This document shows positions 1,196 through 41,663 of a stretch of DNA of 64,000 bases, piece after piece. The position numbers and the translations under genes were made by a program. Location of the stretch: assembly GCA_018814355.1 (NCBI GenBank), contig JAHIZT010000037.1:5989-69988 (forward strand), given 5' to 3'. Below the pieces are notes generated by a model, which searched no databases, had not been told where the DNA came from, and saw nothing but the letters and a program-made list of their open reading frames with translations. This stretch comes from Thermoplasmatota archaeon (GTDB lineage Archaea; Thermoplasmatota; Thermoplasmata; UBA10834). The first letter of the stretch is position 1. Each line of letters begins with the position of its first letter.

Positions 1196-2227
1196 TCAAG
1201 GGATGGGTTTGTGGTACCAAGTGAAATGCTTCACGACTCTGAACCCCATGCCCTCGTAGAGCCTCAGTGGGTCGTGAGGATTCTCGACTTCCATGCCCAA
1301 CATAGCTTCTCTCATCCCCTTGTCCTTGAGGATCTTGAAGCTTCTCGCAAGCAGTGCGCGGGCCAGTCCTCTGCCCCTGTAATGCTCCCGGACGAAGACG
1401 TGTTCAGTATGCCCGCGCTTTCTTTCGAACTGCTGATTTTCCTCTTCTGCGATATAATTCAGGACCATTCCTGCAAGTGTGTCCCCGTCCCATGCTACCT
1501 GCCATAGATCAGGCTGGAAGCTGCTCGATTTCTTAAAAGCCTCAAAGTGCTCATCATCCCATTCGTTCTCGGAGAAGTCCCAGTCTTGCAGGCCGGCTTC
1601 CTTGTTCGCCTCCCATATCTTGCTGTATTGCCCGGGCACGACAGGGCGTATTTCGAAGCCAGCGGGGAGTGGCATCTGGGGGATCTCGTCTAGGCTTCGA
1701 ACCATGTCAAGCTCGTGCTGGACGGGTCGATAGCCGTTGGCCAAGACAATTGACTTCCACTCGTTTTCTGAGTCGTTGGCCCAGAGCTCGAAGAAGCTCA
1801 CACCCTGTTTGCCATCCTTTTTCGCTCTTCCCCGAATGTGTCTCTCATTGTACAGGAACAGCTCTTCACGGATCCCTCTGTCACGCCATTCCAGCAGAAG
1901 CTCCACTGAGTGGGCATACATCCTCTTGTCGTCTTCTCGATCTTCCCACCAAACCCTGGCGAGGGCGATCATCTTTCCCTCTGCCTCGGCAACGAGAATA
2001 TCCGCTTGGGGGTCGAAGTCGAGAGGATTGTCGAATTGAGCTGTCAAATCCTCCTCTGTCGTTACATAATCGACGCCGTCGGCCTCTCTGCTGCTAGTCA
2101 TAAGTGCAGCCATCGCAGGGAGCTCCTCCTTTCCTCGGTATCGGCGAAGCGTCAGTCCTTGGATTATGGGGAAGCCCGCGTCCTCAGTCCTATCAGAGAG
2201 TCTCTCTCCGTTTGTCATTTCATTCAC
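1196..2227 (-). CDS. Tandem-GNAT N-acetyltransferase (MshD/Eis-like two-domain architecture)
   Basis: 343 aa with two GNAT cores. The C-terminal acetyl-CoA motif reads HYRGRGLARALLARSF...GMEVENPHDPLRLYEGMGF. An N-terminal second GNAT-like domain is also present. Confidence 0.75.
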   Translation of the reverse strand: MNEMTNGERLSDRTEDAGFPIIQGLTLRRYRGKEELPAMAALMTSSREADGVDYVTTEEDLTAQFDNPLDFDPQADILVAEAEGKMIALARVWWEDREDDKRMYAHSVELLLEWRDRGIREELFLYNERHIRGRAKKDGKQGVSFFELWANDSENEWKSIVLANGYRPVQHELDMVRSLDEIPQMPLPAGFEIRPVVPGQYSKIWEANKEAGLQDWDFSENEWDDEHFEAFKKSSSFQPDLWQVAWDGDTLAGMVLNYIAEEENQQFERKRGHTEHVFVREHYRGRGLARALLARSFKILKDKGMREAMLGMEVENPHDPLRLYEGMGFRVVKHFTWYHKPIP

Positions 2228-2659
2228 AACGTGGTCGGATGCTCAGAGTGACCAGTCGTCTCCTGCCTGAACAAGGAATTGACAAGCTGTTCGGAGTTTT
2301 TGAAACTTCTGGGTTTCCCTCCAATCAGCAGCCCGATTTTGCGGGCAGCTTTGTGCATGCCACACGCATTAGGTCTTTTTCCATCCGAGGGCTATTGCAG
2401 CGCACGAGACCCTGTCCAAGTCTCTCTCTCAATATAGCGATATTGCTCTCTCCGGAGATCAACGATTTGAACGAGACAAGTCTTGTCCGTAGACCGAAGG
2501 AAGTAGTAGGCCCCTTGCCCTAGACAGCTCTGAGGACGTACATTCTTGTCAGGAACTGCCCTCTTCTGCTCTCTCTAACTTCTTTCATGCGACACTCATT
2601 CCCTCGGACGGTCCTCATATCCGAATTTTCATGGATGTTGAGAGTCAGGATCAAGCGGA

Positions 2660-3763
2660 TTGTATGGATCTAGGGGCTTCATCGTTATGAGGGAATCGCC
2701 AGGCACGCCGTCGGTAGACACCAGCAGATGGCTATCTTATCAGGAGTCTGCATTCTCTCGTAGACTCCGTGAAGGCAAATGCTATATCTCTGTTGGCGGC
2801 TCACCTTCCGCGATGGGCCAGATACGGTACAGACACCCAACTGAAGCAGACGTTGGCTCGATTGTCCGGGCGTGGAACCTGTCTCGACGCGGGATTCCGC
2901 TAGAACGAGATTTCACAATCGGGGAGCTTCGCGCCGAAATATTCGATGACGAGGACTATGACATCAACGGGAGCTGGGTTGCCGAGGCGAAAGGCGAGAT
3001 CGTCGGGTTTGGGTGCGGTACCGTTGAAAGGAGAAGAGTTGAATCTGGTCTGTTAGAAGGATTTGTTACGGTCGAGGTTGTCCCCGAGCACAGAGGACGT
3101 GGGATAGAGAAAGAGATAATGAACCGGGTGCTGGCTTATTTGCGGTCAAGACGCCTGGAGCGCGCTGAGCAATTCTGTCCAACGCTCACGGGATGGAGGA
3201 ACACGCTTTCTGAAGAATATGGATTCAGAGGCGTAAGACATTTCTTCAGGATGGTGCGCAAGGGAGGCAATCCTCCGAAGGACATCAGGATTCCAGCGGG
3301 TGTGCGTTTTGAGAGGAAGATGTTCAAGGACGCAGATGAGGGGGATGTCTCTCTACTGGTAGCGACCTTTAACGACACATTTTCGGAGCACTTCGGTTTC
3401 TCACCCGTATCGGCGAAGAGGTGGCTTCGGCTAAGGGATGCGTATGAGGATGTCGGCATGATCACATTTGCTGTGCGAGAAGGTCGGACTGTCGGGATAT
3501 GCTTCAGTGATGAGAGCGTCCTCTACAACAAGGAGCACGCCTCTGACGTCGGCTGGGTGTGGATGATCGGAGTGACGAAGTCGGAGAGAGGAAAGGGCAT
3601 AGGACGCGCGCTACTTGCAGATTCCGTCGCATGGCTTGCTGGAAGAGGAATTGGCACGGTCTACCTGGGACTCGACGCTGAAAACAGGAAGGCTTTGATT
3701 CTCTACACCTCACTGGGTTTTGACGTAATCCATGAGAGTGTTTACTACAGACTTGTTCTATGA
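2660..3763 (+). CDS. Tandem-GNAT N-acetyltransferase, paralog of the 1196-2227 gene; exact start uncertain
   Basis: 367 aa with two GNAT motifs (VPEHRGRGIEKEIMNRVLAYL and SERGKGIGRALLADSVAWLAG...LGLDAENRKALILYTSLGF). It is divergent from the other tandem-GNAT gene. Confidence 0.7.
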   Translation: MYGSRGFIVMRESPGTPSVDTSRWLSYQESAFSRRLREGKCYISVGGSPSAMGQIRYRHPTEADVGSIVRAWNLSRRGIPLERDFTIGELRAEIFDDEDYDINGSWVAEAKGEIVGFGCGTVERRRVESGLLEGFVTVEVVPEHRGRGIEKEIMNRVLAYLRSRRLERAEQFCPTLTGWRNTLSEEYGFRGVRHFFRMVRKGGNPPKDIRIPAGVRFERKMFKDADEGDVSLLVATFNDTFSEHFGFSPVSAKRWLRLRDAYEDVGMITFAVREGRTVGICFSDESVLYNKEHASDVGWVWMIGVTKSERGKGIGRALLADSVAWLAGRGIGTVYLGLDAENRKALILYTSLGFDVIHESVYYRLVL

Positions 3764-4120
3764 CTGCGCAGTCTTTTCTTGCCGGAGGCAAACCTTCTGG
3801 AAGAAGCGTTTCCGCTGGGGCAGATTCCTACACTCGAAATCGTCGAGAGTTGATATTGATTGCCTGGGCAAACAAGATCCTGGCTGCTTACAGGCACTTG
3901 CAGCACAAGAGGCCTCGTCCGAGTCTCTTACTTAACATTTCCGGGATATCGGTCAGCGATTCTGCTCGGTCTAGAAACCTCTCTTCATCCCGAAGCCGGC
4001 GTGCACATCAACAAGAAGAGCAACCTCGATAGGCTGGTGAAGTAAGTGGAAGCAGGTTTCATGTTGTTCGGATTTGCAGTAGTGGTCATCGGAATGGATT
4101 CAGCGCTATCATGTGGTGCT

Positions 4121-4618
4121 CTAGATTCTCCGCTTAGTATTGAGCGTTAGTAGATGGATAGTCACTCCGATAGCTACGGCGAGCATGCCGATTCGAACGA
4201 TTACGCTTTCGGTAGCGAACACAGCTGAGAACACAATGACGCCCCAGAGCACTGAAAGGGTTACGACCTTGGTCTTGATTGCCAGACCCTTTCCTTCCAG
4301 GTAGTCTCTCAGATAAGCGCCAAAGTACCTGTTCATCATCATCCAGTTGTACATCCGCATGGAGCCTCTGAGATAACACGCTGCTGCGATCAAGAGGAAG
4401 GGCGTCGTAGGCAGGAGGGGCAGGGGAATCCCAATCAGTCCTAGCGCGAGAAAGAGAGTTCCAACTGCATTCCAGAGAAGCCTGACGAGCTTGCTCTGGG
4501 CAACCGATATCCCTGGTGAGGGAGCGTCGGTCTGCGGCTCAGAAGAATCTCCTTCAATCATCAGTGACCTTGTCAGGACTGATTCACGAGGTATGATAAG
4601 TGTTTTTCTTGCATCCAC
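4121..4618 (-). CDS. YbaN/DUF454-family small inner-membrane protein
   Basis: It carries the DUF454 signature GIPLPLLPTTPFLLIAAACY and predicted TM helices, at about 165 aa. Confidence 0.65.
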   Translation of the reverse strand: MDARKTLIIPRESVLTRSLMIEGDSSEPQTDAPSPGISVAQSKLVRLLWNAVGTLFLALGLIGIPLPLLPTTPFLLIAAACYLRGSMRMYNWMMMNRYFGAYLRDYLEGKGLAIKTKVVTLSVLWGVIVFSAVFATESVIVRIGMLAVAIGVTIHLLTLNTKRRI

Positions 4619-4689
4619 TCGATTGGAATGATTCCTAGACCTAGTGCCGGAGAGATGCTATCCCAATCTCAGTGAGGAGTCTGCTCATG

Positions 4690-5790
4690 TCAACGTTCCT
4701 TCCATGACATTAGTCTGCTAGAGAGTACGAAGAAGACTGCACCCAGCACCATCAGTATCCCAAGGTTCGCCATTGCGCTCGCGGTGTTATCGAATACCAT
4801 CGTGTCTCTGAGCCCGTTGTTGAAGTAGGTCAGGGGCATGAAGGCCGCTATCGCTCTGATGAAGGTCGGCATCGCCTCCAACTGGAAGAACGCACCAGAG
4901 AGGAACATCATTGGGAACCCAATCACGTTCGCAAGCGCCACACTCGACTCCGGGTCCTTCACTACTACGCCGATGAGCATCCCGAGGGACACGAATAGGA
5001 ACGCCCCAGCTGGAATGAGGACAAGCGCCATCGGTGTCATGTTGGATCTCATGTCAAAGGCGATTCTGCCGACCGCGAAGGTGGCGAAAAGTGATACATA
5101 CAACAAAGCGGAGTAGAACATGAATTTCGAGATCAGCCATTCGTGCTTCCTCAGTTTGGTCGTTGCCAGGAGCTTGAAGTATCCTCGTTCTCTATATGAC
5201 GCGCAGATCGAGGACATCGAATATAGCGATGTGGTCATGACCGTGATGCCAACCACGCCTGGCAGGAAGAAGTCCATGTATGACATGCGCTCCTTAACAG
5301 GTTGAATGTCGAACGAGACCGTGGGCTGGGCTTCCTCCAGCACGTAGTTCAGGCCAGTAGTCGCCGCACCAAGTACCGCTTGTGCGGTCCCGAATGTCGA
5401 TCCGGAGCTATCTCCGAAAAGTGTTACATTGACCAATCGACTGTGGTTCTGAGCCATTGCCCTCGCGACATCCTCGGTGAAATTGCGCGGTATGAGGAGC
5501 GCTAACGAGAGCGACTTGTCGCTGATGTACTTCGTCAGATTCTCATGCGGGGATATCATCTGAATCTTCACCACGCCTGTGTTGTTGAGCGACTGCAGCA
5601 AGGCCACCGAGTACGGACCGTCGTCCAGATTCTGAACCGGCATGGTCAATTCCGTACCTTCTGACGATGTGAAAATCGCCCCGAAGAGCAGTATCAGAAG
5701 TACTGGGAATGCAAAGGTGAAGAACGCGCCTATCTTGGACCTGAGATACTGCGTCGCAAACCCTTTCAGATCAGCGATTATCCTGCTCAT
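4690..5790 (-). CDS. ABC-2 type transporter permease
   Basis: 366 aa polytopic membrane protein with an ABC-2 membrane-domain pattern. It overlaps the upstream ATPase gene by 4 nt (operonic). Confidence 0.8.
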   Translation of the reverse strand: MSRIIADLKGFATQYLRSKIGAFFTFAFPVLLILLFGAIFTSSEGTELTMPVQNLDDGPYSVALLQSLNNTGVVKIQMISPHENLTKYISDKSLSLALLIPRNFTEDVARAMAQNHSRLVNVTLFGDSSGSTFGTAQAVLGAATTGLNYVLEEAQPTVSFDIQPVKERMSYMDFFLPGVVGITVMTTSLYSMSSICASYRERGYFKLLATTKLRKHEWLISKFMFYSALLYVSLFATFAVGRIAFDMRSNMTPMALVLIPAGAFLFVSLGMLIGVVVKDPESSVALANVIGFPMMFLSGAFFQLEAMPTFIRAIAAFMPLTYFNNGLRDTMVFDNTASAMANLGILMVLGAVFFVLSSRLMSWKER

Positions 5791-6725
5791 TCCTTCAGCA
5801 CCCCCTCTTCCATCTTTGCTCCTACAAGCCCAAGGAACACGTCCTCGAGGGTCTGCCTCCTGGTGTACATGTCCTTGACGTTCAGTTGAAGCGCCGAAAG
5901 CTTGGCGAAGACGGTCCTCATCTCAGAAGGATCTCTCACTGGAACCATCACGTCCCCTTCTTCCTCGGTCGCAGTGATCCCTCTCCGAGAGATCTCCCTC
6001 AGACCATCCTTGCCCACCCCGACCAGCACGACCACCGTCACCTTGCTGTATTTCGCTATGAGCTCCTCTGGGCTCCCTCGTGCGATGATCTTCCCTTTGT
6101 GCATGATGGCCACATCATCCGAGAGCTTCTCAGCTTCGTCGAGATAGTGAGTAGTAAGGAATACCGTGGTTCCTTTCTTCCTGATATCCTCCACCAATCG
6201 CCATAGGTCTCTACGCGCCTTCGGATCGAGACCAGTCGTGGGTTCATCGAGAAAGAGCAGCTCAGGGTTGTTGATGAGCGACAATGCAATCCCCAGCTTC
6301 CTCTTCTCTCCTCCGGAGAGCTTCTTGGAAATCAGGTTCTTTCTGTCGGCCAAGCTAACGCTCTCTAGGAGGTCGTTCACCTCCTTCTTGGACATCCTTA
6401 TGTCGAAAAGCCCCGCCCAATACCTAACCGCCTCCGGCGGTTTGAGCTCGTCGAACGGTTCGAAGTTCTGAGGCAGGACACCGACTCTGCTTCGGATCTT
6501 GGTGTAGTCGCGAGTCACATCGACTCCGAAGATAGAGGCAGTTCCCGATGTCGGGCTCCTGAGCCCTTCGAGGATCTCCACGGTCGTTGTCTTGCCAGCG
6601 CCATTCGGGCCTAGCATGGAGAATATCTGCTTAGGTTTGATCATAGAAGAGATGTCATCGACTGCTTTCACATCTGGTGGATAGTGCTTAGAAAGATTCT
6701 CTACCTGGATGATCACTTCACTCAA
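5787..6725 (-). CDS. ABC transporter ATP-binding protein
   Basis: Walker A (GPNGAGKTT), ABC signature (LSGGEKRKLGIALSL), and Walker B (LLFLDEPTTGLD). Confidence 0.9.
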   Translation of the reverse strand: MSEVIIQVENLSKHYPPDVKAVDDISSMIKPKQIFSMLGPNGAGKTTTVEILEGLRSPTSGTASIFGVDVTRDYTKIRSRVGVLPQNFEPFDELKPPEAVRYWAGLFDIRMSKKEVNDLLESVSLADRKNLISKKLSGGEKRKLGIALSLINNPELLFLDEPTTGLDPKARRDLWRLVEDIRKKGTTVFLTTHYLDEAEKLSDDVAIMHKGKIIARGSPEELIAKYSKVTVVVLVGVGKDGLREISRRGITATEEEGDVMVPVRDPSEMRTVFAKLSALQLNVKDMYTRRQTLEDVFLGLVGAKMEEGVLKE

Positions 6726-6834
6726 GAGCGGTCACCGTTCTGGAGGAACCACATTGCATAACGAGTATAACTCATCTAGTGAGAACCCCCAGAGCTCCGC
6801 TGGCATTGTTCGTCATGTGCCAGATGAGAAGAAA

Positions 6835-7593
6835 TCAAGCAACGGTTCTATCCTTTTCATTCGGAGACCTCCCAAGGTCCATCACCAGCCGAATCCCCAT
6901 CGATCGATTCTTGTTGAAGTATGAAGACCAGTTGTCGTAGAAGACACCCGCCCGTTTGAAACCATAGTTCTCATAGAAGCGCCAATTGCTTGCCTGATCG
7001 TCAGCGTACACCGAAATCCTGGTAGATCCTTTCTGTTTGACGACGTCCACGAACCTGTCCATCAGGACGCTGCCTATTCCTTTGCCCCTGTACTTCGAAT
7101 CGACGAGGAATAGCATGACCTCGGCATCCGCATCGGGCCGGTTTACCAACAACTTCATCTCGACCATCAGGAAGTTCCAGAGCACGGTGGGAAGCCTTTT
7201 GATCCTGCCATACCTGCCCAGGACGAGTTTGGCGCCTGCTTTCATCTCGGAATGGACTATCCTTGTAGGAAATCCCTTGACGTGTCGTCCCCTAATCTCC
7301 CCGAATATGAGCCCAACCAGTTCCCCGTTGTCGAGACACGCGACATCCGTCAAGTTGGACCACGAAACTGCGATTTCGACATACGCTTCCATGATGCGCC
7401 ACCTCTCGAATCCTCCAAGGATGTGATCTTTGACCGGCCATGCTTCGGCTGCAAGCTTCGCGCATCTGATTAGGTCATTGGATGTGTACTCTCTGAAGTG
7501 CAGGTCCTTCAATGTATCGTTCGGGATGAATGCCCGATTCGGGCTTAAGCGTTCGCCAATATATGAGCAAAAAGCACCGAAAAGCGAGGCCAC
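6835..7593 (-). CDS. GNAT-family N-acetyltransferase
   Basis: It carries the motif SKYRGKGIGSVLMDRFVDVVKQKG...YENYGF. Its start codon abuts the stop of the upstream MvhD-HdrD gene, so co-transcription is likely. Confidence 0.7.
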   Translation of the reverse strand: MASLFGAFCSYIGERLSPNRAFIPNDTLKDLHFREYTSNDLIRCAKLAAEAWPVKDHILGGFERWRIMEAYVEIAVSWSNLTDVACLDNGELVGLIFGEIRGRHVKGFPTRIVHSEMKAGAKLVLGRYGRIKRLPTVLWNFLMVEMKLLVNRPDADAEVMLFLVDSKYRGKGIGSVLMDRFVDVVKQKGSTRISVYADDQASNWRFYENYGFKRAGVFYDNWSSYFNKNRSMGIRLVMDLGRSPNEKDRTVA

Positions 7594-9228
7594 CTATTCC
7601 TCTTCAGGCATGAGGTCGAGCAACTTGGCGAGAGCTACAGTGTAATCCTCTAGTTTCACGTCAATCATGGATGGGTCAACGGGCACTTTGTCCTGTATCG
7701 CACACATCATGTGTATCAGACACTTAGGGCAGAACATGAGAAGTCTCTGCGCCCCAACTCTCTTCGCTTCGACCACACGGTCCACCTGGATTCTTTTCGC
7801 GTTCGCGTTGCAGTTGGACCACGCACTCACACCGCAGCATACGGCTTTGTCTCTCGTGTTCTCCATCTCGACGAACTTCGCTCCAGAGAAAGCCTTGGCG
7901 AGTTCCCTCGGCGAGTCATAGACACCAGAATGCCTTCCGAGCCTGCATGAGTCGTGATAGCTGAATGTGAACGAGGGCTTCCTGACCGCATCCAGCTTCA
8001 GGGCTCCTGAATCCGCGAGCTGCTTGACGTAGTCCGCCATATGAACAAGTTCGAACTCCAGGTCGCCTGACAAGTCCTGGTAGTCGCTCTTGAAGGTCCT
8101 GTAGCATTCAGGACATGTGAAGACCACCTTCTTTGCTCCCGACTTTCGGATGAGCGCGATGTTTTGCTCCATGAGTCTCTCAAAGTTTGCCTCGTCACCG
8201 GTCCAGTTCAGGTCATGACCGCAACATTTCTCTTCGTTGCTCACCACAGGGACTACTCCAGCTTTGTTCATTATTCTGACTGCGCTCTCGCAGATCCTCT
8301 GCAGTCCGAGGTCCTTTCTATCATAGAAGATCGCGTCGTAGTGCGGCAGGCAACCTACGAAGTAGAACACATCGCCTTTCTCTGCTACCTTCAGATCCCT
8401 ACCAACCCAAGCGAGCCTATTCTGCTTCTGATCTCCCCTTGCCATCATCCTCTGGACGGAGTGGATCAGCCCTCCTTGGGAGCAGAGAGGCGCGGCGCCG
8501 AAACGTATCGCCTCCTCTCGCATTCCTCGGATGAATCCGGAATAGTCCACCTTGTACGGGCACATCGAGTTGCACTGTTCACATGTAGTGCATGTCCAGA
8601 TGTCCTTGTCCTTGGCTATGTTGTCGACTATCCCCTCCATGGCCCTCATGACTACGGTCCTGGGCGCAAAGTTGGTATCGAGCGTCGCAATTGGGCAGAC
8701 GGTCGTGCACTTCCCGCATTCGACACAATCGAAAGCGCCAGTGTCCTCGATCAGCTGCTTCACCATTGTTACGGTCTGCTCCTTGGTCCTGGTCTTCTTG
8801 ACCTTCGTCTCCTTCAGAAGGGGCGACGGTCCCAGAGCCCTCACTTCCTCGACGAACTCCTTGACGGCCTTGGCGAACCTCACCCTCTCAGAGGCGTTTA
8901 TCCACTCAGTCCTGAGCCTTCTAGAATCCAGTCCCATGATGTCGAAGAGTTTCTTCAGTGCGTCGATCCGTTCCTGCGCCCTCTTGTTCCCGGATACGTA
9001 GTGGCAGTTGTCCATCAGGCATCCTATCACCATGACCCCGTCAATGCCGTGTTCGAATGCGTCCATTATCGCTGCGGGCTCGACGCTTCCGCTGCACATG
9101 ACCCTGACAACGGTCACATTCGGAGGATATTCGATCTTGTTGACACCGGCCAAGCTGGCCGATGGATAACCGCACCAGGTGCAAGCGAACGCGATGATCC
9201 TAGGCTCGAACTTCTCACTCATTGACAT
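7594..9228 (-). CDS. hdrD: Fusion protein: MvhD/FlpD-like domain + HdrC-like 2x[4Fe-4S] ferredoxin + HdrB-like CCG domains (MvhD-HdrD fusion)
   Basis: The N-terminus (IIAFACTWCGYPSA...VRVMCSG...IGCLMDNCHYVSGN) matches MvhD/FlpD. It is followed by CVECGKCTTVCP and CTTCEQCNSMCP clusters and two CCG-type cysteine-rich domains (CCGHD... and CCGVSAW...). The start overlaps hdrA by 14 nt. Confidence 0.8.
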   Translation of the reverse strand: MSMSEKFEPRIIAFACTWCGYPSASLAGVNKIEYPPNVTVVRVMCSGSVEPAAIMDAFEHGIDGVMVIGCLMDNCHYVSGNKRAQERIDALKKLFDIMGLDSRRLRTEWINASERVRFAKAVKEFVEEVRALGPSPLLKETKVKKTRTKEQTVTMVKQLIEDTGAFDCVECGKCTTVCPIATLDTNFAPRTVVMRAMEGIVDNIAKDKDIWTCTTCEQCNSMCPYKVDYSGFIRGMREEAIRFGAAPLCSQGGLIHSVQRMMARGDQKQNRLAWVGRDLKVAEKGDVFYFVGCLPHYDAIFYDRKDLGLQRICESAVRIMNKAGVVPVVSNEEKCCGHDLNWTGDEANFERLMEQNIALIRKSGAKKVVFTCPECYRTFKSDYQDLSGDLEFELVHMADYVKQLADSGALKLDAVRKPSFTFSYHDSCRLGRHSGVYDSPRELAKAFSGAKFVEMENTRDKAVCCGVSAWSNCNANAKRIQVDRVVEAKRVGAQRLLMFCPKCLIHMMCAIQDKVPVDPSMIDVKLEDYTVALAKLLDLMPEEE

Positions 9229-10996
9229 CCGCCTCCTCCGCGATAGCGCGAATCATCGCCTCGACCTGCTCAGGTCTGAAGTTGTTGACAGTGATTGCCT
9301 TGTTGCAGCAAGCGACGGCGCATGCCCCGCAGCCCTCGCACCTGATCTCATCGATCTTTGAAACGAGGATGCCACGTTTTGCGTCTTCGGTGACCTGGAT
9401 GGCCTCGTACTCACAGGCCTTCTCGCACCTTCCACAGCCTCTGCATCTCTCCTCATCCACGAATGCAACGATTCTCGGGAACTTCGTCTTGCCCCTCTTC
9501 ATGAGATCGATTGCGTTCGCGGCAGCCGCCTTCGCGTCTTCGATCGAATACCTAATCCCCTTCGGACCCTGCGCTGTCCCAGCGACATAGATCCCCCTTC
9601 TGAACTCCGACGGGAACATCGGGTTTATGTCCTTCAAGAATCTGTCGATGTCCGTCTGGATGTGCAGCATCTTGGCGAGCTTGTCGCTGCCATCCGCAGG
9701 TTCCTGGCCGACGGACAGCACCACGAGGTCGGAATCGATATTCAGAAGGGTGTCTGAATCGGTGTCAGCAGCCCTGACGAACAGCTTGTTCATGTCCTCA
9801 ACCACCTCAGACACTCGTCCTCTGACGAAGTTGATGCCCTCCTCCTTGGCAGCCTGATAGAACTCCTCGAAGCCTCTGTACGGTCCTCTGAGATCGATAT
9901 AGTGGATGTACACATTCGCATCCGGGTTCAGCTTCTTGATCTCCCTTGCTTGGCCTATGGCATATGTGCAGCAGACAAGTGAGCAGTGGAGATTGCCCTT
10001 GGTCTTGTCTCTGGATCCCACACACTGGATGAAGTTGACGGTCTTGGGGACTTTACCGTCGGATGGCCTTACCAGTCCCTCACCTTTCTCGCGCTGTGCC
10101 ACGAGGATCTGCTCCAGTTCCACTGTCGTGATGACGTTCGGGTTCCCGTAGCGCAGCTCGGGTATGCGTTTCGGGTCGAAGATATTTGAACCAGTCGCGA
10201 CGATTACCGTCCCGACATCGATCTCCTTCAGTCCTGACGGAGTCTTGATCTTCACATGCCTGTTTCCGAATCCTCCGCTCATCTCTTCGATTTCAGAGTT
10301 GAGCATGACCTCTATGTTCCGGGTCTGGAGCACATCCTCGATCTTCGGCGTGAACACACATTCCTTGCAGTACTGGATGCAGCAGATCCCGCAGTTGTGT
10401 GTCGGGAAGGTCATGCTCAGCTTGTAGGTCCTGCCTCCAAGCTCTCCGGTCCTCTCAACCAGATGGACCTTGTACCCTGCGCTGGCGATGTCAAGCGCAG
10501 CCTGCATGCCGGTCACCCCACCGCCGATGACAATGGCGGAGTCCCTGATAGGTATCTCGATGTCCTCGAGAGGAACAAGCTTCTCTACCCTTGCAACGGC
10601 TCCCTTGACAAGGCTCTTTGCCTTGTTGGTGGCAGCCTTTTTGTCGTGATGCACCCAGGCACAGAGCTCGCGTATGTTGACCTGTTCGAACAGGTACTTG
10701 TTCATGCCCATGTCCTCAAGGGACCTGCTCACTATGACTCCCAGAATGTTGGGGGAACATGCACCAACTGCCGCACGCTCGAAGTTCACTTTCTTGAACT
10801 GGTCCTGGAGGAACTTCTGCCCCTCCCGCGAGCAGAGAGCCTCGTGAACGCTGACTGAGACCACTCGAGGGTCCTTCCCAATCCCATCCGCGATCGCCTG
10901 GAGGTCCACGTGCCTTCCAATCTCGTTCCTGCACGAGCACAGGAAGACGGCGATCCCCTTTCGTTCCACAACCTTTTCCTCTGAGCGTTCAGCCAT
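9215..10996 (-). CDS. hdrA: Heterodisulfide reductase subunit A-like flavoprotein (HdrA)
   Basis: FAD-binding GxGxxG (VIGGGVTGMQAALDIASAGYKVHLVER), an N-terminal Cys-rich domain, and a C-terminal 2x[4Fe-4S] ferredoxin (CRGCGRCEKACE...CEGCGACAVAC). Confidence 0.85.
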   Translation of the reverse strand: MAERSEEKVVERKGIAVFLCSCRNEIGRHVDLQAIADGIGKDPRVVSVSVHEALCSREGQKFLQDQFKKVNFERAAVGACSPNILGVIVSRSLEDMGMNKYLFEQVNIRELCAWVHHDKKAATNKAKSLVKGAVARVEKLVPLEDIEIPIRDSAIVIGGGVTGMQAALDIASAGYKVHLVERTGELGGRTYKLSMTFPTHNCGICCIQYCKECVFTPKIEDVLQTRNIEVMLNSEIEEMSGGFGNRHVKIKTPSGLKEIDVGTVIVATGSNIFDPKRIPELRYGNPNVITTVELEQILVAQREKGEGLVRPSDGKVPKTVNFIQCVGSRDKTKGNLHCSLVCCTYAIGQAREIKKLNPDANVYIHYIDLRGPYRGFEEFYQAAKEEGINFVRGRVSEVVEDMNKLFVRAADTDSDTLLNIDSDLVVLSVGQEPADGSDKLAKMLHIQTDIDRFLKDINPMFPSEFRRGIYVAGTAQGPKGIRYSIEDAKAAAANAIDLMKRGKTKFPRIVAFVDEERCRGCGRCEKACEYEAIQVTEDAKRGILVSKIDEIRCEGCGACAVACCNKAITVNNFRPEQVEAMIRAIAEEADVNE

Positions 10997-15717: not shown

Positions 15718-16776
15718 GTGATTGTTATGGTCTCGGTTTGCATGTTGACGGAGCTCGAGAGGTACCGGGCCATCATCCCGTTCAAGAACCCTGGCGGCAT
15801 GGGGACCAATGTGCCGATGGTCGCGCGAGAGCTGGAGAAGGTGGGCGTTCGCGTGCTGCTCAACCAGCCGAAGGGCGAGTACGATGTCCTGCATGTCCAC
15901 AGCCCTTTGCCTGATTCGTTTCTGTGGGCTTTGCGGCGTAGGAAGGAGGGCAAGCCTCTTGTCGTCCATGGGCGGCATCTCCCAGAACTCGTTAAGGGCG
16001 GCTTCAAGGGTGGTTCGTGGATCTATCCGTTCGTTCGCTCCTACTCGGTGAAGTTCTACAACCTTGGCGACGTCGTGGTTGGGGCGACGCCATACGTCGC
16101 GAAGTCCCTGGCTAGGGACGGAGTGCGGGGTCCGTTCAGGGTCATCCCCAACGGGGTCAGCAAGGAAGTGTTCAAGAGGAACGAAACGCTCCGCATTAAG
16201 TTCAGGGAACGCTGGGGCCTCTCAGAATCCGACAAGCTGGTGCTCAGCGTCGGCCTCCGCATCCCGAGGAAAGGCGTCGACACCTTCGTGAACATGTCCT
16301 CCAAGTTCAAGGACAGGAAGGATGTGAAGTTCGTCTGGGTGGGGGCCTCCGAGGCTCTGCTCAAGGACGCACTTGACCGGACGTCACCGGGCAATGTGAT
16401 GTTCCCGGGCCATGTGCCGTTCGAGGAGATAGTGGGTGTGTACTCTGCCGCGGACGTATTCGTGTTCCCGACGAGAGCAGAGAGCTATGGAAACGTCATG
16501 CTCGAGGCTGCGAGCTGCGGTTGCCCGCTGCTCATCAGGGATATACCGGTCTACGAGGAATGGGTCCGTGACGGCCAGCACTGCCTGAAGGCTAAGGACG
16601 ACGAGGATTTCTCCAAGAAGCTCGGTGCCATCATCGACGATGCCGGTCTCCGCAGGAGGCTGGTCGATGGGGCTGGTCAGCTGGCCAGTGAGCACGACAT
16701 CAGGAAGACGGCATTGATGCTGAAGGAGCTCTACGAGTCGCTGTCGGCGGGAGGTGGAGCTGCACGTTCGACCTGA
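15718..16776 (+). CDS. Glycosyltransferase family 4 (GT-B, group 1)
   Basis: C-terminal GT4 motif region (...FVFPTRAESYGNVMLEAASCGCPLLIRD...) and an EX7E-like pattern. The start codon is uncertain. Confidence 0.8.
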   Translation: MIVMVSVCMLTELERYRAIIPFKNPGGMGTNVPMVARELEKVGVRVLLNQPKGEYDVLHVHSPLPDSFLWALRRRKEGKPLVVHGRHLPELVKGGFKGGSWIYPFVRSYSVKFYNLGDVVVGATPYVAKSLARDGVRGPFRVIPNGVSKEVFKRNETLRIKFRERWGLSESDKLVLSVGLRIPRKGVDTFVNMSSKFKDRKDVKFVWVGASEALLKDALDRTSPGNVMFPGHVPFEEIVGVYSAADVFVFPTRAESYGNVMLEAASCGCPLLIRDIPVYEEWVRDGQHCLKAKDDEDFSKKLGAIIDDAGLRRRLVDGAGQLASEHDIRKTALMLKELYESLSAGGGAARST

Positions 16777-17375
16777 TGACGGTGGGAAGAGACATCATCG
16801 ACCTGTTCTCCGACCTGGGCGATGCCGGAATGCTACTTGCCATGATAGTGATCATCTGGATCGATGGCACCGCGTTCCCCACATTGCCCGAGGTCTGGAT
16901 GGTGTTCATCTTCGGCGCGCACCCCGATTCCTTCATGTGGGGGTTCAGTCTCGTCCTGGTCGCGACCGTTGCCAGCCTCGCCGGCAACTTCACGCTGTAC
17001 TCGCTCGTGAAGGTGGCGAGACTTCCCGGTTGGATCCAGAAGGGCATGAGGAAGTACACGGACTTCCTGATACTGAAGGACGAGAGGCTGTTGATTCTAA
17101 ACAGATTCGCCCCGCTCGTCCCTTACACGGGAGCGTTCATAGCGGTGTGCAACTGGAACGTGAAGAAGTCCGCCATCTATCTCTTCGTGAGCGCATTGGC
17201 GAAGTTCTCGGCCTACACTATCATCTTCTGGCTGAGCTACGGCAACCTCAAGGACGAGGTCGCCCCCTGGGTATCCCTCGGGATAGTGGTGACCGTGATC
17301 ACGGCCAGCCTAATAGCATCGGTCATCTACAAGAGGCGAGGCAAGACAAGGGGTGAGCCAGCACGATCTCCGTAG
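16776..17375 (+). CDS. DedA/VTT (SNARE-associated) family membrane protein
   Basis: 199 aa, 4-5 TM, with a DedA-like core (LNRFAPLVPYTGAFIAVCNW). Its stop overlaps the GTG start of the next gene by 1 nt. Confidence 0.6.
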   Translation: MTVGRDIIDLFSDLGDAGMLLAMIVIIWIDGTAFPTLPEVWMVFIFGAHPDSFMWGFSLVLVATVASLAGNFTLYSLVKVARLPGWIQKGMRKYTDFLILKDERLLILNRFAPLVPYTGAFIAVCNWNVKKSAIYLFVSALAKFSAYTIIFWLSYGNLKDEVAPWVSLGIVVTVITASLIASVIYKRRGKTRGEPARSP

Positions 17376-21468: not shown

Positions 21469-23022
21469 TCATGTGTACTCTTCGCCGTGCTTCTTTCTCC
21501 ACTCGGCCAGCGGCACCGAGAACTTCTTCTCGACCTCGGTCCTGTAGACCGGGCCGGAGTTGTATGCGCAGAACGGGATGATCTTCCCATCCGGCGTTGT
21601 GTAGTGTATCATGCACCTTTTGACCCGCTCGATATCGTAGTTGTACGAGTCCATGAAGTGCATCGCGCCGACGTACATCATCTTCCAGCTGAACCTGGCT
21701 AGCTCGCTCTTGGTATCCTCGGAGATGATCCCTTTCAGGGACCTCAGGAAGTCCATCTTGCTCATGCCCTCGGGGAGCTCGTTCTCCCTGACGTACTTCT
21801 TCAGCAGGTTGTACGCCTTCACCTTGGACAGCAGCTTGACCTTCTTCCCCTCGGTCTTCTTGGCAAGCTCGTAGACCTCGGTGAACAGGTTCTCGACATC
21901 CACGAACCTCGTCACGGGTACCACGTGGTCCGCATCCTTGACGAACATGTAGGTGGCCATGCCGCAGTGGACGTGCGTGGTCAGCGTGACCTTCGGGTCA
22001 CAGTACAGAGCCGCCCATAGCTCCGAGACGGAGGCAACGGTCGGGACGGGGTACCAGTCGGTCGTCTTGATCATCCCTTTCGACTGCTTCTCTATGTCCT
22101 TCGCGAGGTCGGGGATCGTGTACCTACCCTTCTCCAACTCCTCGTTGCTGATCCTGCCGGTGAACGCCACGGGTTGGAAGTTCACACCCCTGACGACGTC
22201 CATGTTCTCAAGGGCGTAGTGCAGTATCGGCCAGACCTGGTCGTCGTTCAACCCCTTCACGATGGTCGGGACGAAGACGATCGACGGATGCCTCTTGACC
22301 TTCCTGCAGTTCTCGATGACCTTCTTCTTCGTGTCGAGCAGGTCCGCGCCCCTGGCGCGCTTGTAGATCTCCGGTCTGAGGCCGTCGAACTGCAAGTAGA
22401 CCGTGTTCAGGCCAGCATCGCTCGCCTTCTGGAAGAAATCCACATCCTTGGCGAACAGGATGCCGTTCGTGGCCACCTGGACTTGTGCGAACCCCAGGTC
22501 ATGGGCCGCCTTGATGATGTCGATGAACCTCGGATGGATGGTCGGCTCGCCCCCGGAGAACTGCACGGCAGGCGTTGGGACAGGCCTCTGGGCCCTGAGG
22601 ACCTTCAGCATGCCGACGACCGTGTCGTAGTCCGGTTCGAACACATATCCTGCCTGGTTCGCGTTCGCAAAGCAGATCGGGCACTTCAGGTTGCATCTGT
22701 TGGTGAGGTCGACATTCGCGAGTCCAGTGTGAGAGAGATGGAGGTTGCACAGGCCGCAGTCGAAGGGGCATTGCCTCGCATTCGGTATCAGGGGCTCGCG
22801 GACACCTACACCATCCTTGGCCCACTTCTCGGCCCTCAGATACATGTCCACATCGGACCATACTATGTCCCTGAAGTTGCCGTGTTTGGGGCAGTTCTTC
22901 TCCATAACCACCTTGCCCTTGTCCTCTCGTATGGTGGCGGGTATGATCATCAAACATTCCGGACACAGGCTCTCCGTCTTCTTCGGAAGCCCCAGCGGAA
23001 TAGCGGATTCCCTGGTCAGCAT
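21469..23022 (-). CDS. tes: Radical SAM enzyme, probable tetraether lipid synthase (Tes/GDGT-MAS) homolog
   Basis: 517 aa with the radical SAM CxxxCxxC (CNLKCPICF), a second Cx3Cx2C (CPFDCGLC), an N-terminal rubredoxin-like CPEC...CPKHG, and C-terminal cysteines. It sits in an operon with a ferredoxin and GGR. Confidence 0.55.
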   Translation of the reverse strand: MLTRESAIPLGLPKKTESLCPECLMIIPATIREDKGKVVMEKNCPKHGNFRDIVWSDVDMYLRAEKWAKDGVGVREPLIPNARQCPFDCGLCNLHLSHTGLANVDLTNRCNLKCPICFANANQAGYVFEPDYDTVVGMLKVLRAQRPVPTPAVQFSGGEPTIHPRFIDIIKAAHDLGFAQVQVATNGILFAKDVDFFQKASDAGLNTVYLQFDGLRPEIYKRARGADLLDTKKKVIENCRKVKRHPSIVFVPTIVKGLNDDQVWPILHYALENMDVVRGVNFQPVAFTGRISNEELEKGRYTIPDLAKDIEKQSKGMIKTTDWYPVPTVASVSELWAALYCDPKVTLTTHVHCGMATYMFVKDADHVVPVTRFVDVENLFTEVYELAKKTEGKKVKLLSKVKAYNLLKKYVRENELPEGMSKMDFLRSLKGIISEDTKSELARFSWKMMYVGAMHFMDSYNYDIERVKRCMIHYTTPDGKIIPFCAYNSGPVYRTEVEKKFSVPLAEWRKKHGEEYT

Positions 23023-25121: not shown

Positions 25122-25277
25122 GAGTGCATCCCGAAGGGTCTAATGCCAATGCGGTCTAAGAACATTTCTACGTGCTCTGCTCGGCGCCGGCGGTTCTTTG
25201 AAGAATCTCGTTCGGCCAGATGTACGCTGCATGTAGCTGATACCATTTACCCTCTGGAGGCCGGTCGCGAAGCTGGT

Positions 25278-28200
25278 ATGGCTATGAGTATCAGGACCGT
25301 CGGGCTGGGAAGCAGTCTTTCGAAGCTCAGAAGCATGAATAGGGACAGGGCGGGACAGGTCTCATTCGCTGTCATCGCGGTCGTTCTGCTGACCGCCTCT
25401 GCGATAACCGGAACATACATGGCAAAGAGCCAGCTGGATCGGGCCCAGGATGAGAGGCGACAGAAGCTTCTGGACGCCATGGAGGACGCCGCTGGGGATG
25501 TCATCCAGGAGCTGAGCTTGTGCGGTGCATCAAAGGCCCACGAGACAGTCTCCTCATGGACCAGGTTTCCGGTGAACGAGTCCGATATCTCGGACGCTTA
25601 CTCGGACAAGGTGTCGATGTACATAGGCACGAGCTATCCGCGATCCGAGGGGAAGTTCGCGGTCGAGGTCTCCAACTGGACGGGGGGACTATTCTTCATC
25701 GAGCGAAAGACGCTGGACCTCGTCCCTCAGGAGGCCAACGGCACAGAGGAATTGGAAATCGACGGTATCAAGATGGACTACGAGAAGCTTCCATCGCCGT
25801 CCGCAGAAGTGATGGGCGAGACGACCGCGAACCCGTACTACGTGGCTCTTGGCAACTTCTCAATCAGGGTGTCGGTCAAGAACGTCGCGCTCGTCAAGCA
25901 ATCGTCGTTCCAGAGACCGATTGTGTCCGCCCTCCCATTTCTGGAGTCCAAGCTTAGGGCGTTCGAGGGGGCATCCGATGGCGAGCTTTCCGACCTGGGT
26001 CGACTGCTCGGGTACATGCTGAGCACTCTCTGCGAACTGAGGGTGCTCGAGGGCTATGGCCAGCCGATGTACTCTGGCAGGGAGACCTCTCAAGTGCTCA
26101 CGGAGGACGATGTGTACCGCGCGGTCGCCGTCGGGCTGCTCCTCGAGCAAGCTAGGGTCTTCAGGACTGTGGACCATGGATTCGCGGCCCAGGTCGCGGA
26201 TGCCTGCGGAGGCGGGTATCCCGGCATCGACGCCTTCCTAAGTCCCAAGGAGCGAACGCTCGACGCAGCCGAACTCTTCCTGTGGTTCTTGGGAATCACC
26301 AAGCCTCAGATCGATTCTCGGATGATCATCGCCCAAGCGGTCTTCGGCTTGTCCGATGCGCTCGCGCTAAGGATCATGGACTACATGGGCTGGCTAGGTC
26401 AGCTGGACTTGGCTAAGGGCCTGTTGGACTCCATGCACAGCACGATCGATTCGTTCGTCTCGTTCCTAACGGGCGTCGACAAATCCTGGATCGCCGTCGT
26501 GTCATGGATAGGCAAGACGCTGAAGATGACTGGGGCCGACCCAAGGGCGTACTCGGAGTTGTTCTCCTCGCCCGAGGACTTCTCAGTACTCGTGCCGGAG
26601 AGGCAGTACTTCGTGGAGGACGCCTCTGGGAACCTGTATCCTGTCTGGGTCGGGAACATGTCGTGCCCTGTGAACGTCCCGCAGTACGACCTCCTTTCTT
26701 CAGCCAAATGGAAGGACTTCTATGCTTCCTACAAGGAATGCCAGGCGAGTTTCAGAACGCAGCTGGCGGACGGCATCACAAGACTGGCGTTCGACATCGC
26801 CGACCTCGCTCAGCTCGACATGAATGAGACCGTCGTCGACCCCACTGACGGCCGGGACATTTTCGAGTCGCTGGTTCACGGTTCGGGGGAGGTCGACCTT
26901 AGATTGGAGCGGACATCACTTGCCCAAAGAGGGAAGAATCTTCCTATGTTCTCGTCGAACTATCAGCTGGCCACGAGGTTCGGCCAGTTCGTGAATGCGA
27001 ACGGCCTTTCGCTCGTGAACCGGACAGGCCTGCTCCAGGCGACCTATTCCGACCTGGCAACCTCCGTGGCCGCCTCCGCAAGGTACGCCTACATACCCGA
27101 CCTTGTCGTTCCAGTCGAGCAGCAGATCGAGGACATTGTGAGGCACGACGTCGAGCTGGACGCGGGCTGGGGCGTGGGCGCGGCGACCGCCTCATTTCTG
27201 GATGGCATCTCTGCAAGGGACCTCGAACGGCTTGTGGCCCTTGTCAACATGTCCATCGTGAAGGCTGATGACGGCTTCATGGGTCCGTTGGTGGATTCGG
27301 TCGCAAACATGATAGCCTGGGGCACGGACACGCTCCCCGGCCTGGAGCAGCTGGTGGAGATGCAGCTCTCTGCATTTGCGCGGCAGGTTCTGGAACAGAA
27401 GGAGTTCTCCGCCCACAAACGGCATGTCCAGGTAGGGTTGGGCGGAACCTTCGAGTTCTGGGAGGGCGACAAGACCTCCGCCGCAGGAAATGCCCGGGTC
27501 ATGAACGAGTCGTTGAACGTGTCCGTCCAGTCCGGGCTGCCGCCCATGCAAACGGTGCCTTTCGACGCATCCGCAGGATACGATTCTCTGGAAAACCTGT
27601 TCCCAACGGACAACATGCTGGTCCAGGTCAAGGGACCTTGGGACTTCGATTCAAGCATCGCCTCATATCCCAACCTCCATTTGACATCGGCCGACAATGA
27701 GACTCTGAAACCGTACTCGACCCAGTGGACTGTCTCCGTCCTAGGAGTCCTGAGCCTGGCGCTTTCGACGCACAACTCCGCTATGCAGTCGATCCTATCC
27801 GATGGAGGAACGGAATCGAGGAGGAGCATACGGATAGAAGTATGCGTCCCAGTTGTTGTGCATTCCGCATGGCCTCTCCAGGGTGTGGTCTACAATCCCA
27901 CCAACACCGCGCTCGCTGACGGGCTGGCTGCAGCGAGGGTGTGCTACGATATCCTCTGGGACAAGCTCGGGCCGGTGCTTGGGTGGGTCAAGGACGGCAT
28001 GGAGATGATCTACAAGTTCGTCTCCGATGCGTTCGATGTCCTTGCGCGTTTCGCAAATCGCATGATAAAGTACATCACAGAGGCCATGCAGACATTGATC
28101 GAGAACCTCCAGGAGTACATACAGAAAGTGGCGGACTCCGCGCTCGGAAAAGCCATCAGATGGTTCATCGACATCACTGGACGGGTCGAGTTCAGGTTCT

Positions 28201-35051: not shown

Positions 35052-35828
35052 ATGATAGATGTGAACGCCCTGCTATCTGTCGGTTGTCGCTCCAGGATCG
35101 CAGTCGGCATAGGGCTTCAAGAGGCACAGTTGTCACTCACCCAGCAGAAGCTCTCGTCCCTCGGATGCAAGGTTCGCCTGAAGCGGTTCAACGACTCGCA
35201 TGAGCTGGTGATGTCGTTGCGGGACGGCGACATAGATGCGGCCGTTAGAGGGACTCTTGGCTCCTCGAGAACCATCCAGGAGCTGAAAGCCTCGTTCGGC
35301 GTGAGAGAGATCATGCGCACGGCGGTCCTCGAAGATGCCAATGGGAAGCAGTTCCTGCTAACCCCGGTCGGGATCGATGAAGGGACTGACAGACAGTCGA
35401 GGATAGCGCTGGCCCTAGCATCGGTTACGTACTTCTCATCATCAGGCTGGTCGATGAAATGCGGGGTGCTTTCAAAGGGCCGAACGGAGGACTCCGGAAG
35501 AGGGTCGGATATCAGAACGAGCATCGAGGACGGTGACAGAATAGTCGACTCCCTGAGGGCGAAAGGACATGCAGCAGAACAGTACGCGATCCTGGTCGAG
35601 GATGCCGTCAGGGACTCGGATCTGGTGATAGCTCCGGATGGAGTCTCGGGAAACCTGATTTTCAGGACCCTCCATTTCGTAGGTGGGTGCAAAGCCTATG
35701 GCGCTCCGGTGGTGAACCTTTCGAGGGTCTTCGTCGACACTTCGCGATCGAAGTCGGACTTCTCGGATTCGGTCTTGTTGGCTGCGGGGTTGGTTGAGAC
35801 AAGGAGCAAGACCGTCAATCGCCCCTGA
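35052..35828 (+). CDS. Short PTA_PTB (phosphate acetyl/butyryl-transferase fold) family protein, MtxX-like
   Basis: The C-terminal IAPDGVSGNLIFRTLHFVGGCKAYGAPVVNLSR resembles the Pta C-terminal motif. At 258 aa it is much shorter than Pta. Confidence 0.45.
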   Translation: MIDVNALLSVGCRSRIAVGIGLQEAQLSLTQQKLSSLGCKVRLKRFNDSHELVMSLRDGDIDAAVRGTLGSSRTIQELKASFGVREIMRTAVLEDANGKQFLLTPVGIDEGTDRQSRIALALASVTYFSSSGWSMKCGVLSKGRTEDSGRGSDIRTSIEDGDRIVDSLRAKGHAAEQYAILVEDAVRDSDLVIAPDGVSGNLIFRTLHFVGGCKAYGAPVVNLSRVFVDTSRSKSDFSDSVLLAAGLVETRSKTVNRP

Positions 35829-41285: not shown

Positions 41286-41663
41286 TCAATCCAAGCTCTT
41301 TACTCGTCTGACCAGGATCTCCTCTAGGATGTTCCGGGCATCTCTCACTTTTGCCAGTTCCTCGTGAGTAAGGTCTAGCCTAAGGAGATGTGACCAGATC
41401 TTTGAGAGCGCGTGGTATGACTCCATTATCAATTCGATGTCCTCATCGGACTCCTTTGGAGTTTCCGGTTTCTCATCCTCGATTGGACGGTAGAAGACGT
41501 TCCTCCCGATCTTCGTTCTGGTCACTGCGGCTTTCTTCTCAAGCTTCTGCAATGCCTGGGTGGCGCCCGATTGGGTGATTCCAAGCTCAGCGGCCAGCAA
41601 CGTTGGCGAATGGATGCCCTTGCGGAGGACATCTAGTATCTCCATCTCTCTCGGAGTGAGCAT
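41286..41663 (-). CDS. Winged-helix transcriptional regulator (MarR/ArsR/TrmB-like)
   Basis: An HTH (TLLAAELGITQSGATQALQKLEKK) within a 125 aa protein. Confidence 0.55.
   Translation of the reverse strand: MLTPREMEILDVLRKGIHSPTLLAAELGITQSGATQALQKLEKKAAVTRTKIGRNVFYRPIEDEKPETPKESDEDIELIMESYHALSKIWSHLLRLDLTHEELAKVRDARNILEEILVRRVKSLD

Follow-up and report, generated by a model that had tools for sequence, protein, structure and literature searches.

A conserved gene pair of uncultured Thermoplasmata encodes a short HdrA and an MvhD-HdrC-HdrB fusion that may form a non-bifurcating oxidoreductase

Introduction

Among anaerobes, flavin-based electron bifurcation is carried out chiefly by HdrA-based modules, whose role in non-methanogens is largely unexplored. 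What such a module may do without an adjacent hydrogenase, in a lineage that lacks Mcr, is the question raised by two overlapping genes in the DNA analyzed here, a stretch of 64,000 nucleotides (hereafter the window; assembly GCA_018814355.1, contig JAHIZT010000037.1, positions 5,989 to 69,988) from a Thermoplasmatota archaeon of the order UBA10834, also named 'Ca. Gimiplasmatales' (PMC11264602). The first gene encodes an HdrA and the second a protein in which MvhD, HdrC and HdrB are joined in one polypeptide. The two genes and the features on which the argument depends are the following (FAD, flavin adenine dinucleotide).

9215-10996, minus strand: hdrA, short subclass; 593 residues, with a [4Fe-4S] domain at the N-terminus, a thioredoxin-reductase-like core that binds FAD, and a 2x[4Fe-4S] ferredoxin domain at the C-terminus
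10223-10246, minus strand: junction at the missing inserted ferredoxin domain; HdrA residues 251-258, from the PDB alignment
9953-9955, minus strand: Gly348 at the position of Lys409 of Methanothermococcus thermolithotrophicus HdrA; CCTYAIGQ aligned with CCMYAMKN
10343-10408, minus strand: Cys-rich loop FPTHNCGICCIQYCKECVFTPK; HdrA residues 197-218, a gap in the PDB alignments
7594-9228, minus strand: mvhD-hdrC-hdrB (MvhD-HdrD-like) fusion; 544 residues (542 in the public annotation)
8809-9213, minus strand: MvhD/FlpD domain; fusion residues 6-140, with C16, C19, C45, C70 and C75
8494-8730, minus strand: HdrC-like 2x[4Fe-4S] ferredoxin; fusion residues 167-245, ligands C168/171/174/178 and C213/216/219/223
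8089-8370, minus strand: CCG domain 1; fusion residues 287-380, C293-X41-C335C336-X35-C372xxC375
7699-7965, minus strand: CCG domain 2; fusion residues ~422-510, C428-X35-C464C465-X34-C500xxC503
9215-9228, minus strand: overlap of the hdrA stop and the fusion start, ATGTCAATGAGTGA, preceded by GGAGGAGG

We propose, with a probability of roughly 0.55, that the two products form a soluble, non-bifurcating oxidoreductase of thiol/disulfide type, encoded by a conserved two-gene module of 'Ca. Gimiplasmatales' to which the GNAT and ABC-2 genes downstream would be unrelated. The finding overturns nothing. The part of it that deserves the attention of specialists is the HdrA subclass, which is a more informative anomaly than either the fusion or the neighboring genes and which had been missed by an earlier sequence-only reading of the locus.

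A short subclass of HdrA

The HdrA of the window has an FAD-binding core with the GxGxxG motif (Pyr_redox_2 and FAD-family Pfam matches at residues 149-194), and it aligns with the HdrA chains 5ODC_A and 8RVU_a at E 6e-120 to 7e-120. The alignment falls into two blocks, residues 1-251 (8RVU) or 11-251 (5ODC) and then residues 257/258-588. Between them, target residues ~244-325 are skipped (in 8RVU, query residue 251 corresponds to target 243 and query 258 to target 326), and these ~80 residues are the inserted ferredoxin domain, which in canonical HdrA carries two clusters leading to ferredoxin (PMC9012536). The same short junction without the inserted domain was found in all HdrA orthologs, that is, at the loci whose fusion is 61-93% identical to that of the window. 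The other cofactor sites are kept: cysteines for the N-terminal cluster, for the thioredoxin-reductase-domain cluster and for the 2x[4Fe-4S] ferredoxin at the C-terminus are all present, as is the equivalent of Cys197, and the cysteines of the protein are 97-100% conserved (C20, C22, C55, C80; C202/C205; C325, C338, C342/343; C518-528; C553-563).

A second departure concerns the flavin. Lys409, the flavin-N5 lysine, has been proposed together with Glu356 as the feature that separates bifurcating from non-bifurcating HdrA (PMC12054007), and the contrast of Lys and Gln at the two flavins of BamE is in line with such a marker (preprint 10.64898/2026.04.10.717634). In the window HdrA the glutamate is retained as E295 and the lysine is replaced by Gly348. 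Glycine stands at this position in 31 of 32 aligned rows; the lone exception is a different HdrA paralog that had been picked from locus L035, and the true ortholog from L035 also has Gly. Among the HdrA paralogs outside the short subclass at the same loci, all but two keep Lys.

The third departure is the loop FPTHNCGICCIQYCKECVFTPK, which corresponds to the canonical FPTxDCxxCILxPK (holding Cys194 and Cys197 of 5ODC) expanded by eight residues, among them the additional C206, C210 and C213; the target loop opposite it reads FPTNDCSIC--------ILAPK. The Cys-rich form of the loop is present in 34 short HdrAs, whereas 104 other HdrA thioredoxin-reductase domains from the same loci have the canonical 14-residue loop. 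Loss of the domain, replacement of Lys409 by Gly and insertion of the cysteines hold without exception across the orthologs, even in L033 and L035, which diverge most. The short HdrA family comprises more than 120 clusters at 90% identity, of ~593 residues, and a non-exhaustive text search of the literature on the classification of HdrA diversity found no description of a short HdrA subclass of Thermoplasmata. An AlphaFold2 model of this HdrA was set aside; it was built on a shallow alignment of 43 sequences and had a mean predicted local distance difference test score (pLDDT) of 63, falling below 50 in the Cys-rich loop.

Taken together, the missing inserted domain, Gly in place of Lys409 and the Cys insertion suggest a non-bifurcating reductase of disulfide type. 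One alternative, unlikely as we consider it, is that the complex is still an electron-bifurcating Hdr, in which the CGICCxQYCxEC insertion ligates a new Fe-S cluster that takes over from the lost domain as low-potential exit to ferredoxin and in which H2 (through Mvh in trans) or another donor feeds the MvhD domain. The three extra cysteines are indeed invariant in all orthologs, they adjoin a cysteine that in the methanogen enzyme helps to ligate the cluster toward the inserted ferredoxin domain (PMC9012536), Glu356 is retained, and genes of Mvh type are present in the lineage (in the supercluster described below; PMC11264602). Against this, all orthologs have Gly in place of Lys409, a lysine that is retained by other HdrA copies of these genomes, and the HdrA model, at its low confidence, offers no structural support for an extra cluster. 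A broader proposal is that the short HdrA is a distinct, previously undescribed subclass in which the 8-residue Cys insertion replaces the ferredoxin domain and creates a new metal center or electron exit, possibly a bifurcating one, with regulation by cystathionine β-synthase (CBS) domain proteins in most members; here the center would be built at the Cys197 loop, at the dimer interface. As a whole we regard this proposal as rather improbable.

The fusion protein

That the 544-residue protein consists of an MvhD domain, an HdrC-like ferredoxin and two CCG domains had been claimed from the sequence alone, and Pfam, PDB alignment and predicted fold now agree on it. Pfam places FlpD/MvhD (PF02662) at residues 11-133 (E 5e-48, profile positions 1-123 of 123), a 4Fe-4S dicluster at residues 167-228, and two CCG stretches (PF02754) after it. 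Residues 6-140 align with the whole MvhD chain 5ODC_D (3-137) at E 1e-40, residues 167-245 align with HdrC chains, and a variable Lys-rich linker (residues ~134-166) lies between the MvhD and ferredoxin parts. The HdrD-type order of ligands is complete: two ferredoxin motifs of the form CX2CX2CX3C stand ahead of two CCG domains of the C..CC..CXXC pattern. Loss of the HdrB cysteines from the CCG domains was looked for, and both motifs proved to be intact. Cysteines of the MvhD, ferredoxin, CCG1 and CCG2 parts are 97-100% conserved among 33 orthologs, the five of the MvhD [2Fe-2S] domain being invariant.

The AlphaFold2 model of the fusion (mean pLDDT 72, predicted template-modeling score 0.76) resembles the MvhD chains in the PDB with template-modeling (TM) scores of 0.80-0.85 at a root-mean-square deviation of 2.9 Å, and its C-terminal half resembles HdrB chains at TM 0.62-0.67, with LutA also matched. 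Over the whole chain, the top fold match is EtfD of M. smegmatis, an HdrD-like protein (9OJN, E 4e-13) that also matches residues 208-513 by sequence. Over residues 142-514, no NCBIfam family gives a better full-length match than TfrB, at 136 bits against a cutoff of 385.

The match to EtfD raises a further explanation, namely that the HdrD-like half is no disulfide reductase but a terminus that exchanges electrons with another protein or with a membrane complex, for instance an electron-transfer flavoprotein (ETF) or an Fpo-like complex. There are precedents in mycobacterial EtfD and in BamD of class II benzoyl-CoA reductase, which hands electrons to ETF, and schemes joining an Fpo-like complex with HdrD have been proposed for relatives. 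However, no ETF, Fpo or membrane-anchor gene is adjacent to the pair in the window or in 38 orthologous loci, and Pfam predicts no membrane domain in the fusion, so that we consider a terminus of this kind doubtful.

Proposed function

The pair encodes all cofactor sites of two branches of the canonical Hdr electron path. On the input side these are the MvhD [2Fe-2S] site, the C-terminal ferredoxin domain of HdrA and FAD, and on the high-potential output side FAD again, the thioredoxin-reductase-domain cluster, two cubanes of HdrC type and two five-cysteine sites of HdrB type. The ferredoxin-reducing branch is deleted, and the marker lysine of bifurcating flavins is Gly. We propose that the complex would reduce, or in the reverse direction oxidize, a disulfide or thiol substrate. 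Since Mcr is absent from the order, the heterodisulfide of coenzyme M (CoM) and coenzyme B (CoB), CoM-S-S-CoB, does not suggest itself as the substrate. Electrons might enter through a partner docking on the MvhD domain, for which an Mvh-type hydrogenase encoded beside a paralogous supercluster in related genomes is a candidate; alternatively, a hydride donor might act directly at FAD, as has been proposed for HdrA2B2C2 (PMC5296606; PMC12054007). The Cys-rich insertion by the Cys197 equivalent may bind an extra metal center.

Several points weigh against a non-bifurcating thiol/disulfide oxidoreductase. The absence of Lys409 and of the inserted domain is a published heuristic and not a proof of non-bifurcation, and ~15% of the HdrAs from methane-metabolizing archaea also lack K409 (PMC12054007). 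The extra cysteines could build a replacement low-potential exit, and the HdrA model, at a mean pLDDT of 63, is too poor to inform on the loop that holds them. Moreover, HdrD-like modules can be endpoints of electron transfer from protein to protein, as BamD is with ETF (preprint 10.64898/2026.04.10.717634), and it is EtfD that heads the fold matches of the fusion.

The pair is a natural 'minimal' version of the Hdr machinery, in which the input and disulfide branches are kept and the ferredoxin branch and the flavin lysine are lost. It could be a test case both for the features that make an HdrA bifurcating and for the role of Hdr without CoM-S-S-CoB.

Comparison with known systems

The window pair shares with HdrABC-MvhAGD of M. 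thermolithotrophicus (5ODC) and Methanothermobacter marburgensis (8RVU) a full-length MvhD match, an HdrC-like dicluster and two CCG sites of HdrB type. It differs from them in that MvhD, HdrC and HdrB form one polypeptide, that no mvhAG is adjacent, that its HdrA has neither the inserted ferredoxin domain nor Lys409 but carries the 8-residue Cys-rich insertion, and that the lineage is without Mcr.

HdrA2B2C2 of Methanosarcina acetivorans, which contains an HdrA-MvhD fusion and depends on F420H2 and ferredoxin (PMC5296606), is likewise soluble and has an MvhD domain without hydrogenase. Among NCBIfam profiles, both products of the window score best against that of HdrA2, in which HdrA and MvhD of Methanosarcina are fused: in HdrA, residues 258-590 correspond to positions 315-645 of the profile, and in the fusion, residues 5-134 correspond to positions 644-773. 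The domains of the pair therefore run as those of HdrA2, HdrC and HdrB would in succession, except that the break between the proteins falls before MvhD and not after it. In contrast to HdrA2B2C2, MvhD stands at the N-terminus of the HdrCB protein and not at the C-terminus of HdrA, HdrB and HdrC are fused, and the inserted ferredoxin domain of HdrA is gone. The scores against HdrA2 (535 bits for HdrA and 167 for the fusion) are far under the 1100-bit cutoff, and therefore neither product belongs to the HdrA2 equivalog; HdrA also scores under the cutoffs of HdrA (406 of 1400 bits) and HdrA_Methbact (396 of 1300).

BamDEF of class II benzoyl-CoA reductase (preprint 10.64898/2026.04.10.717634) and the multi-HdrA clusters of anaerobic methanotrophic archaea (ANME), Asgard archaea and sulfate reducers (PMC9012536, PMC11237513, PMC2702500) bring together an HdrA-type flavoprotein, an MvhD-type adaptor and an HdrD-like subunit in which HdrB and HdrC are fused, with MvhD serving as an adaptor to partners other than hydrogenases. 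In these systems, too, Lys or another residue at flavin N5 sets the bifurcating apart from the non-bifurcating FAD. Unlike the window, they have a double HdrA of ~1000 residues with separate MvhD and HdrD, whereas the window HdrA is single and short and its MvhD and HdrD are fused; a long-HdrA arrangement of their type surrounds the paralogous fusion in related genomes. HdrD of HdrDE, TfrB and EtfD (9OJN) share with the fusion an HdrC-like ferredoxin joined to two CCG domains, but the window system has no membrane anchor, heme subunit or TfrA-type flavoprotein, no hdrE-like gene is adjacent to the pair, and its MvhD is N-terminal.

The fusion in itself is a common and already annotated architecture, and its generic interpretation has already been published. 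More than 2000 homologs were found at E <= 1e-10 in a collection clustered at 90%, with generic names such as 'heterodisulfide reductase subunit D' and 'Fe-S oxidoreductase/F420-reducing hydrogenase delta subunit', and matches to representatives at 50% identity numbered 12,114. Both the MvhD and HdrD parts were aligned in ~20 of the best 150 representatives, down to 31% identity. Two divergent fusions that were looked up each follow an HdrA of 958-1136 residues, and one of them lies on a bacterial contig beside a 2-oxoacid:ferredoxin oxidoreductase operon. For ANME, too, HdrD-like genes have been noted within clusters that hold several hdrA copies (PMC9012536). Two Desulfobacteraceae loci (L079 and L080), taken as fusions from tblastn at 44% identity, were rejected; in L080 (9995-11570), mvhD and hdrD are in the same frame and are split by TAA TAG. 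At the position of Cys70 of the archaeal protein, this mvhD shows an in-frame TGA codon, probably for selenocysteine.

A conserved gene pair with variable neighbors

A soluble HdrA-[MvhD-HdrCB] unit, as had been proposed from the sequence, is supported by the overlap of the two genes and by their synteny. The short hdrA ends within 120 nucleotides of the fusion start in all 38 orthologous loci that have enough upstream flank, and the pair is kept down to 61-67% identity, including in a hot-spring metagenome-assembled genome (MAG). In the window, hdrA ends at a TGA (9215-9217) and MvhD opens the next, overlapping open reading frame (ORF). The 14-nucleotide overlap reported earlier holds for the first ATG (9228) but shrinks to 8 nucleotides for the second ATG (9222), from which the public annotation begins the fusion (542 residues, P0001, 'hydrogenase iron-sulfur subunit [Thermoplasmatota archaeon]'). 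A Shine-Dalgarno-like motif could be read at the overlap, and the pair is probably translationally coupled.

The pair is the first part of five ORFs that run head to tail on the minus strand over 4690-10996; their order and shared strand are those of the sequence-only reading. The downstream genes are as follows (ABC, ATP-binding cassette; assignments from Pfam and NCBIfam).

6835-7593, minus strand: GNAT acetyltransferase; longest ORF 252 residues, GTG start
5787-6725, minus strand: DrrA-like ABC ATPase; 312 residues
4690-5790, minus strand: ABC-2 permease (DrrB-type); 366 residues
7558-7583, minus strand: T4 and T5 runs, then ATATATT; directly after the fusion stop codon

These genes had been taken for passengers of an hdr operon, which the synteny contradicts. 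Neither a GNAT nor an ABC homolog occurs within 3 kb downstream of the fusion in any of the 32 orthologous loci with at least 1.5 kb of downstream flank, and for this reason they are not operon passengers. Locus L001, with a fusion 93% identical to that of the window, has three different genes in place of the window's GNAT gene, two ABC genes and DUF454. That the five genes are one operon, in which acetylation and export would be tied to Hdr, can hardly be right: they share one strand with short gaps, and the GTG at 7593 puts the GNAT gene against the fusion stop, but the 32 loci and L001 speak against it, the homologous ABC pair of L030 lies upstream of the hdr pair on the other strand, the public GNAT start is 81 nucleotides downstream, and T-runs and a TATA-like element follow the fusion stop. 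The claim that the GNAT gene begins at the very next nucleotide stands only for the longest ORF; the NCBI call of 225 residues, from a TTG at 7512, leaves the gap. The T-runs and ATATATT may be an archaeal terminator and a TATA-like element ahead of the GNAT gene, and such remarks on promoters and terminators, being a reading of the letters, are weak. We conclude from the synteny that the GNAT and ABC-2 genes are chance neighbors in a strain-variable stretch outside the hdr module; as functional partners of that module they were rejected. The stretch 1196-7593 holds three GNAT genes (1196-2227, 2660-3763 with two GNAT domains, and 6835-7593) and the ABC-2 exporter, has a G+C fraction of 0.525 against 0.55-0.59 over 8-38 kb, and differs in gene content between the window and the 93%-identical relative L001.

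At 28 orthologous loci, hdrA is directly preceded on its own strand by two tandem CBS-pair genes (PF00571). Such genes were not found in the window, its nearest relatives or the paralogous locus. Their products may be nucleotide-sensing regulators of the hdrA/fusion module. The CBS-pair proteins have ~138-148 residues and end in ...VSC (for example L020:7292-8181). In a subclade without CBS genes (L030:7414-8145, L017, L063, L074), a protein of 232-243 residues that ends in ...IAGC is encoded upstream of hdrA, and its lone match is a weak one to the Lrp/AsnC ligand-binding domain. The window has neither CBS genes nor a gene for the ...IAGC protein upstream of hdrA, just a 470-bp gap, in which no credible small ORF was seen; an Rfam scan of the whole window gave no match.

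The hydrogenase question

It had been noted that no mvhAG or frh gene lies near the pair, and this was confirmed: hydrogenase, Frh and Fdh genes are absent from the ~53 of 55 non-overlapping ORFs of at least 90 residues that were scanned in the 64-kb window, two small ORFs (90 and 103 residues) lying outside the scan. The further step, that the missing Mvh implies another electron partner, was overstated, in view of a long-documented pattern and of a hydrogenase gene at a paralogous locus. An MvhD without a nearby hydrogenase is known, and mvhD beside hdr genes without a complete Mvh has been described for Desulfobacterium autotrophicum, Methanosarcina and Archaeoglobus (PMC2702500).

A second, paralogous fusion (54-57% identical) is present in at least 30 of these Thermoplasmata MAGs, where it sits in a conserved hdr supercluster of ~18 kb (L052:1323-21081, from the genome of L002; also L037-L078). 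Its genes follow the order hypD, for hydrogenase maturation (in ~25 of 38 loci, and there often preceded by other small genes); hdrA (~700 residues), hdrC, hdrB and mvhD; hdrA (~1010 residues), the paralogous fusion and a gene of ~125 residues; a split hdrA (431 + 625 residues) and a long mvhD; hdrA (~1013 residues) and mvhD; and, closing the cluster in about nine loci, genes for an ArsR-type regulator and for the small subunit of a [NiFe]-hydrogenase (Oxidored_q6). The supercluster thus amounts to four to five HdrA units in a row. Since the small-subunit gene ends this paralogous supercluster, an Mvh-like hydrogenase is encoded in the lineage. The gene was seen just at the paralogous locus of related genomes, not by the window pair. 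The lack of a nearby mvhAG therefore does not exclude a trans partner, and a hydrogenase in that role is possible for the window pair.

Lineage and metabolic setting

In the species-representative genome collection, the closest loci to the window fusion all come from uncultured Thermoplasmata MAGs. These include RBG_19FT_COMBO_56_21, RBG_13_57_23 and UBA9653, and RBG_16_62_10 is also among the fusion homologs; these four MAGs define the GTDB order UBA10834 (bioRxiv 10.1101/2020.03.09.984617). The order is non-methanogenic, without Mcr, and basal or sister to Methanomassiliicoccales (bioRxiv 10.1101/2020.03.09.984617), and its gene content includes acetyl-CoA synthase/CO dehydrogenase, non-pyrrolysine MttB homologs and hdrA-D (bioRxiv 10.1101/2020.03.09.984617; PMC11264602). 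MvhAGD has been reported for the order, and mvhAGD and sulfhydrogenase genes are present in some of its MAGs (PMC11264602). The order is widespread and uncultured, and methylotrophic acetogenesis has been proposed as its lifestyle.

At 60116-63781 (minus strand) the window carries two full-length genes of MttB-superfamily methyltransferases, of 510 and 489 residues. They have no in-frame stop and hence no pyrrolysine. A gene for a B12-binding corrinoid protein (210 residues) adjoins them, with an AsnC-type regulator gene adjacent. These MttB and corrinoid genes fit the non-methanogenic methylotrophy proposed for UBA10834.

Other reading frames of the window

Four ORFs of 125-497 residues, at 43079-44572 (minus strand), 35052-35828 (plus strand), 16754-17356 (plus strand) and 41286-41663 (minus strand), have no Pfam match at E <= 1e-3, the 125-residue one having been tested just at E <= 1e-6. 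A 1524-residue ORF at 25143-29717 (plus strand) has just a weak, sub-threshold Pfam match to the Lamin Tail Domain (residues 1167-1263), and its product may be a surface protein. The gene at 21469-23022 (minus strand) encodes a radical-SAM protein that carries the HMPTM N-terminal zinc ribbon (PF23545), a ribbon that probably belongs to the pterin methyltransferase of methanopterin biosynthesis.

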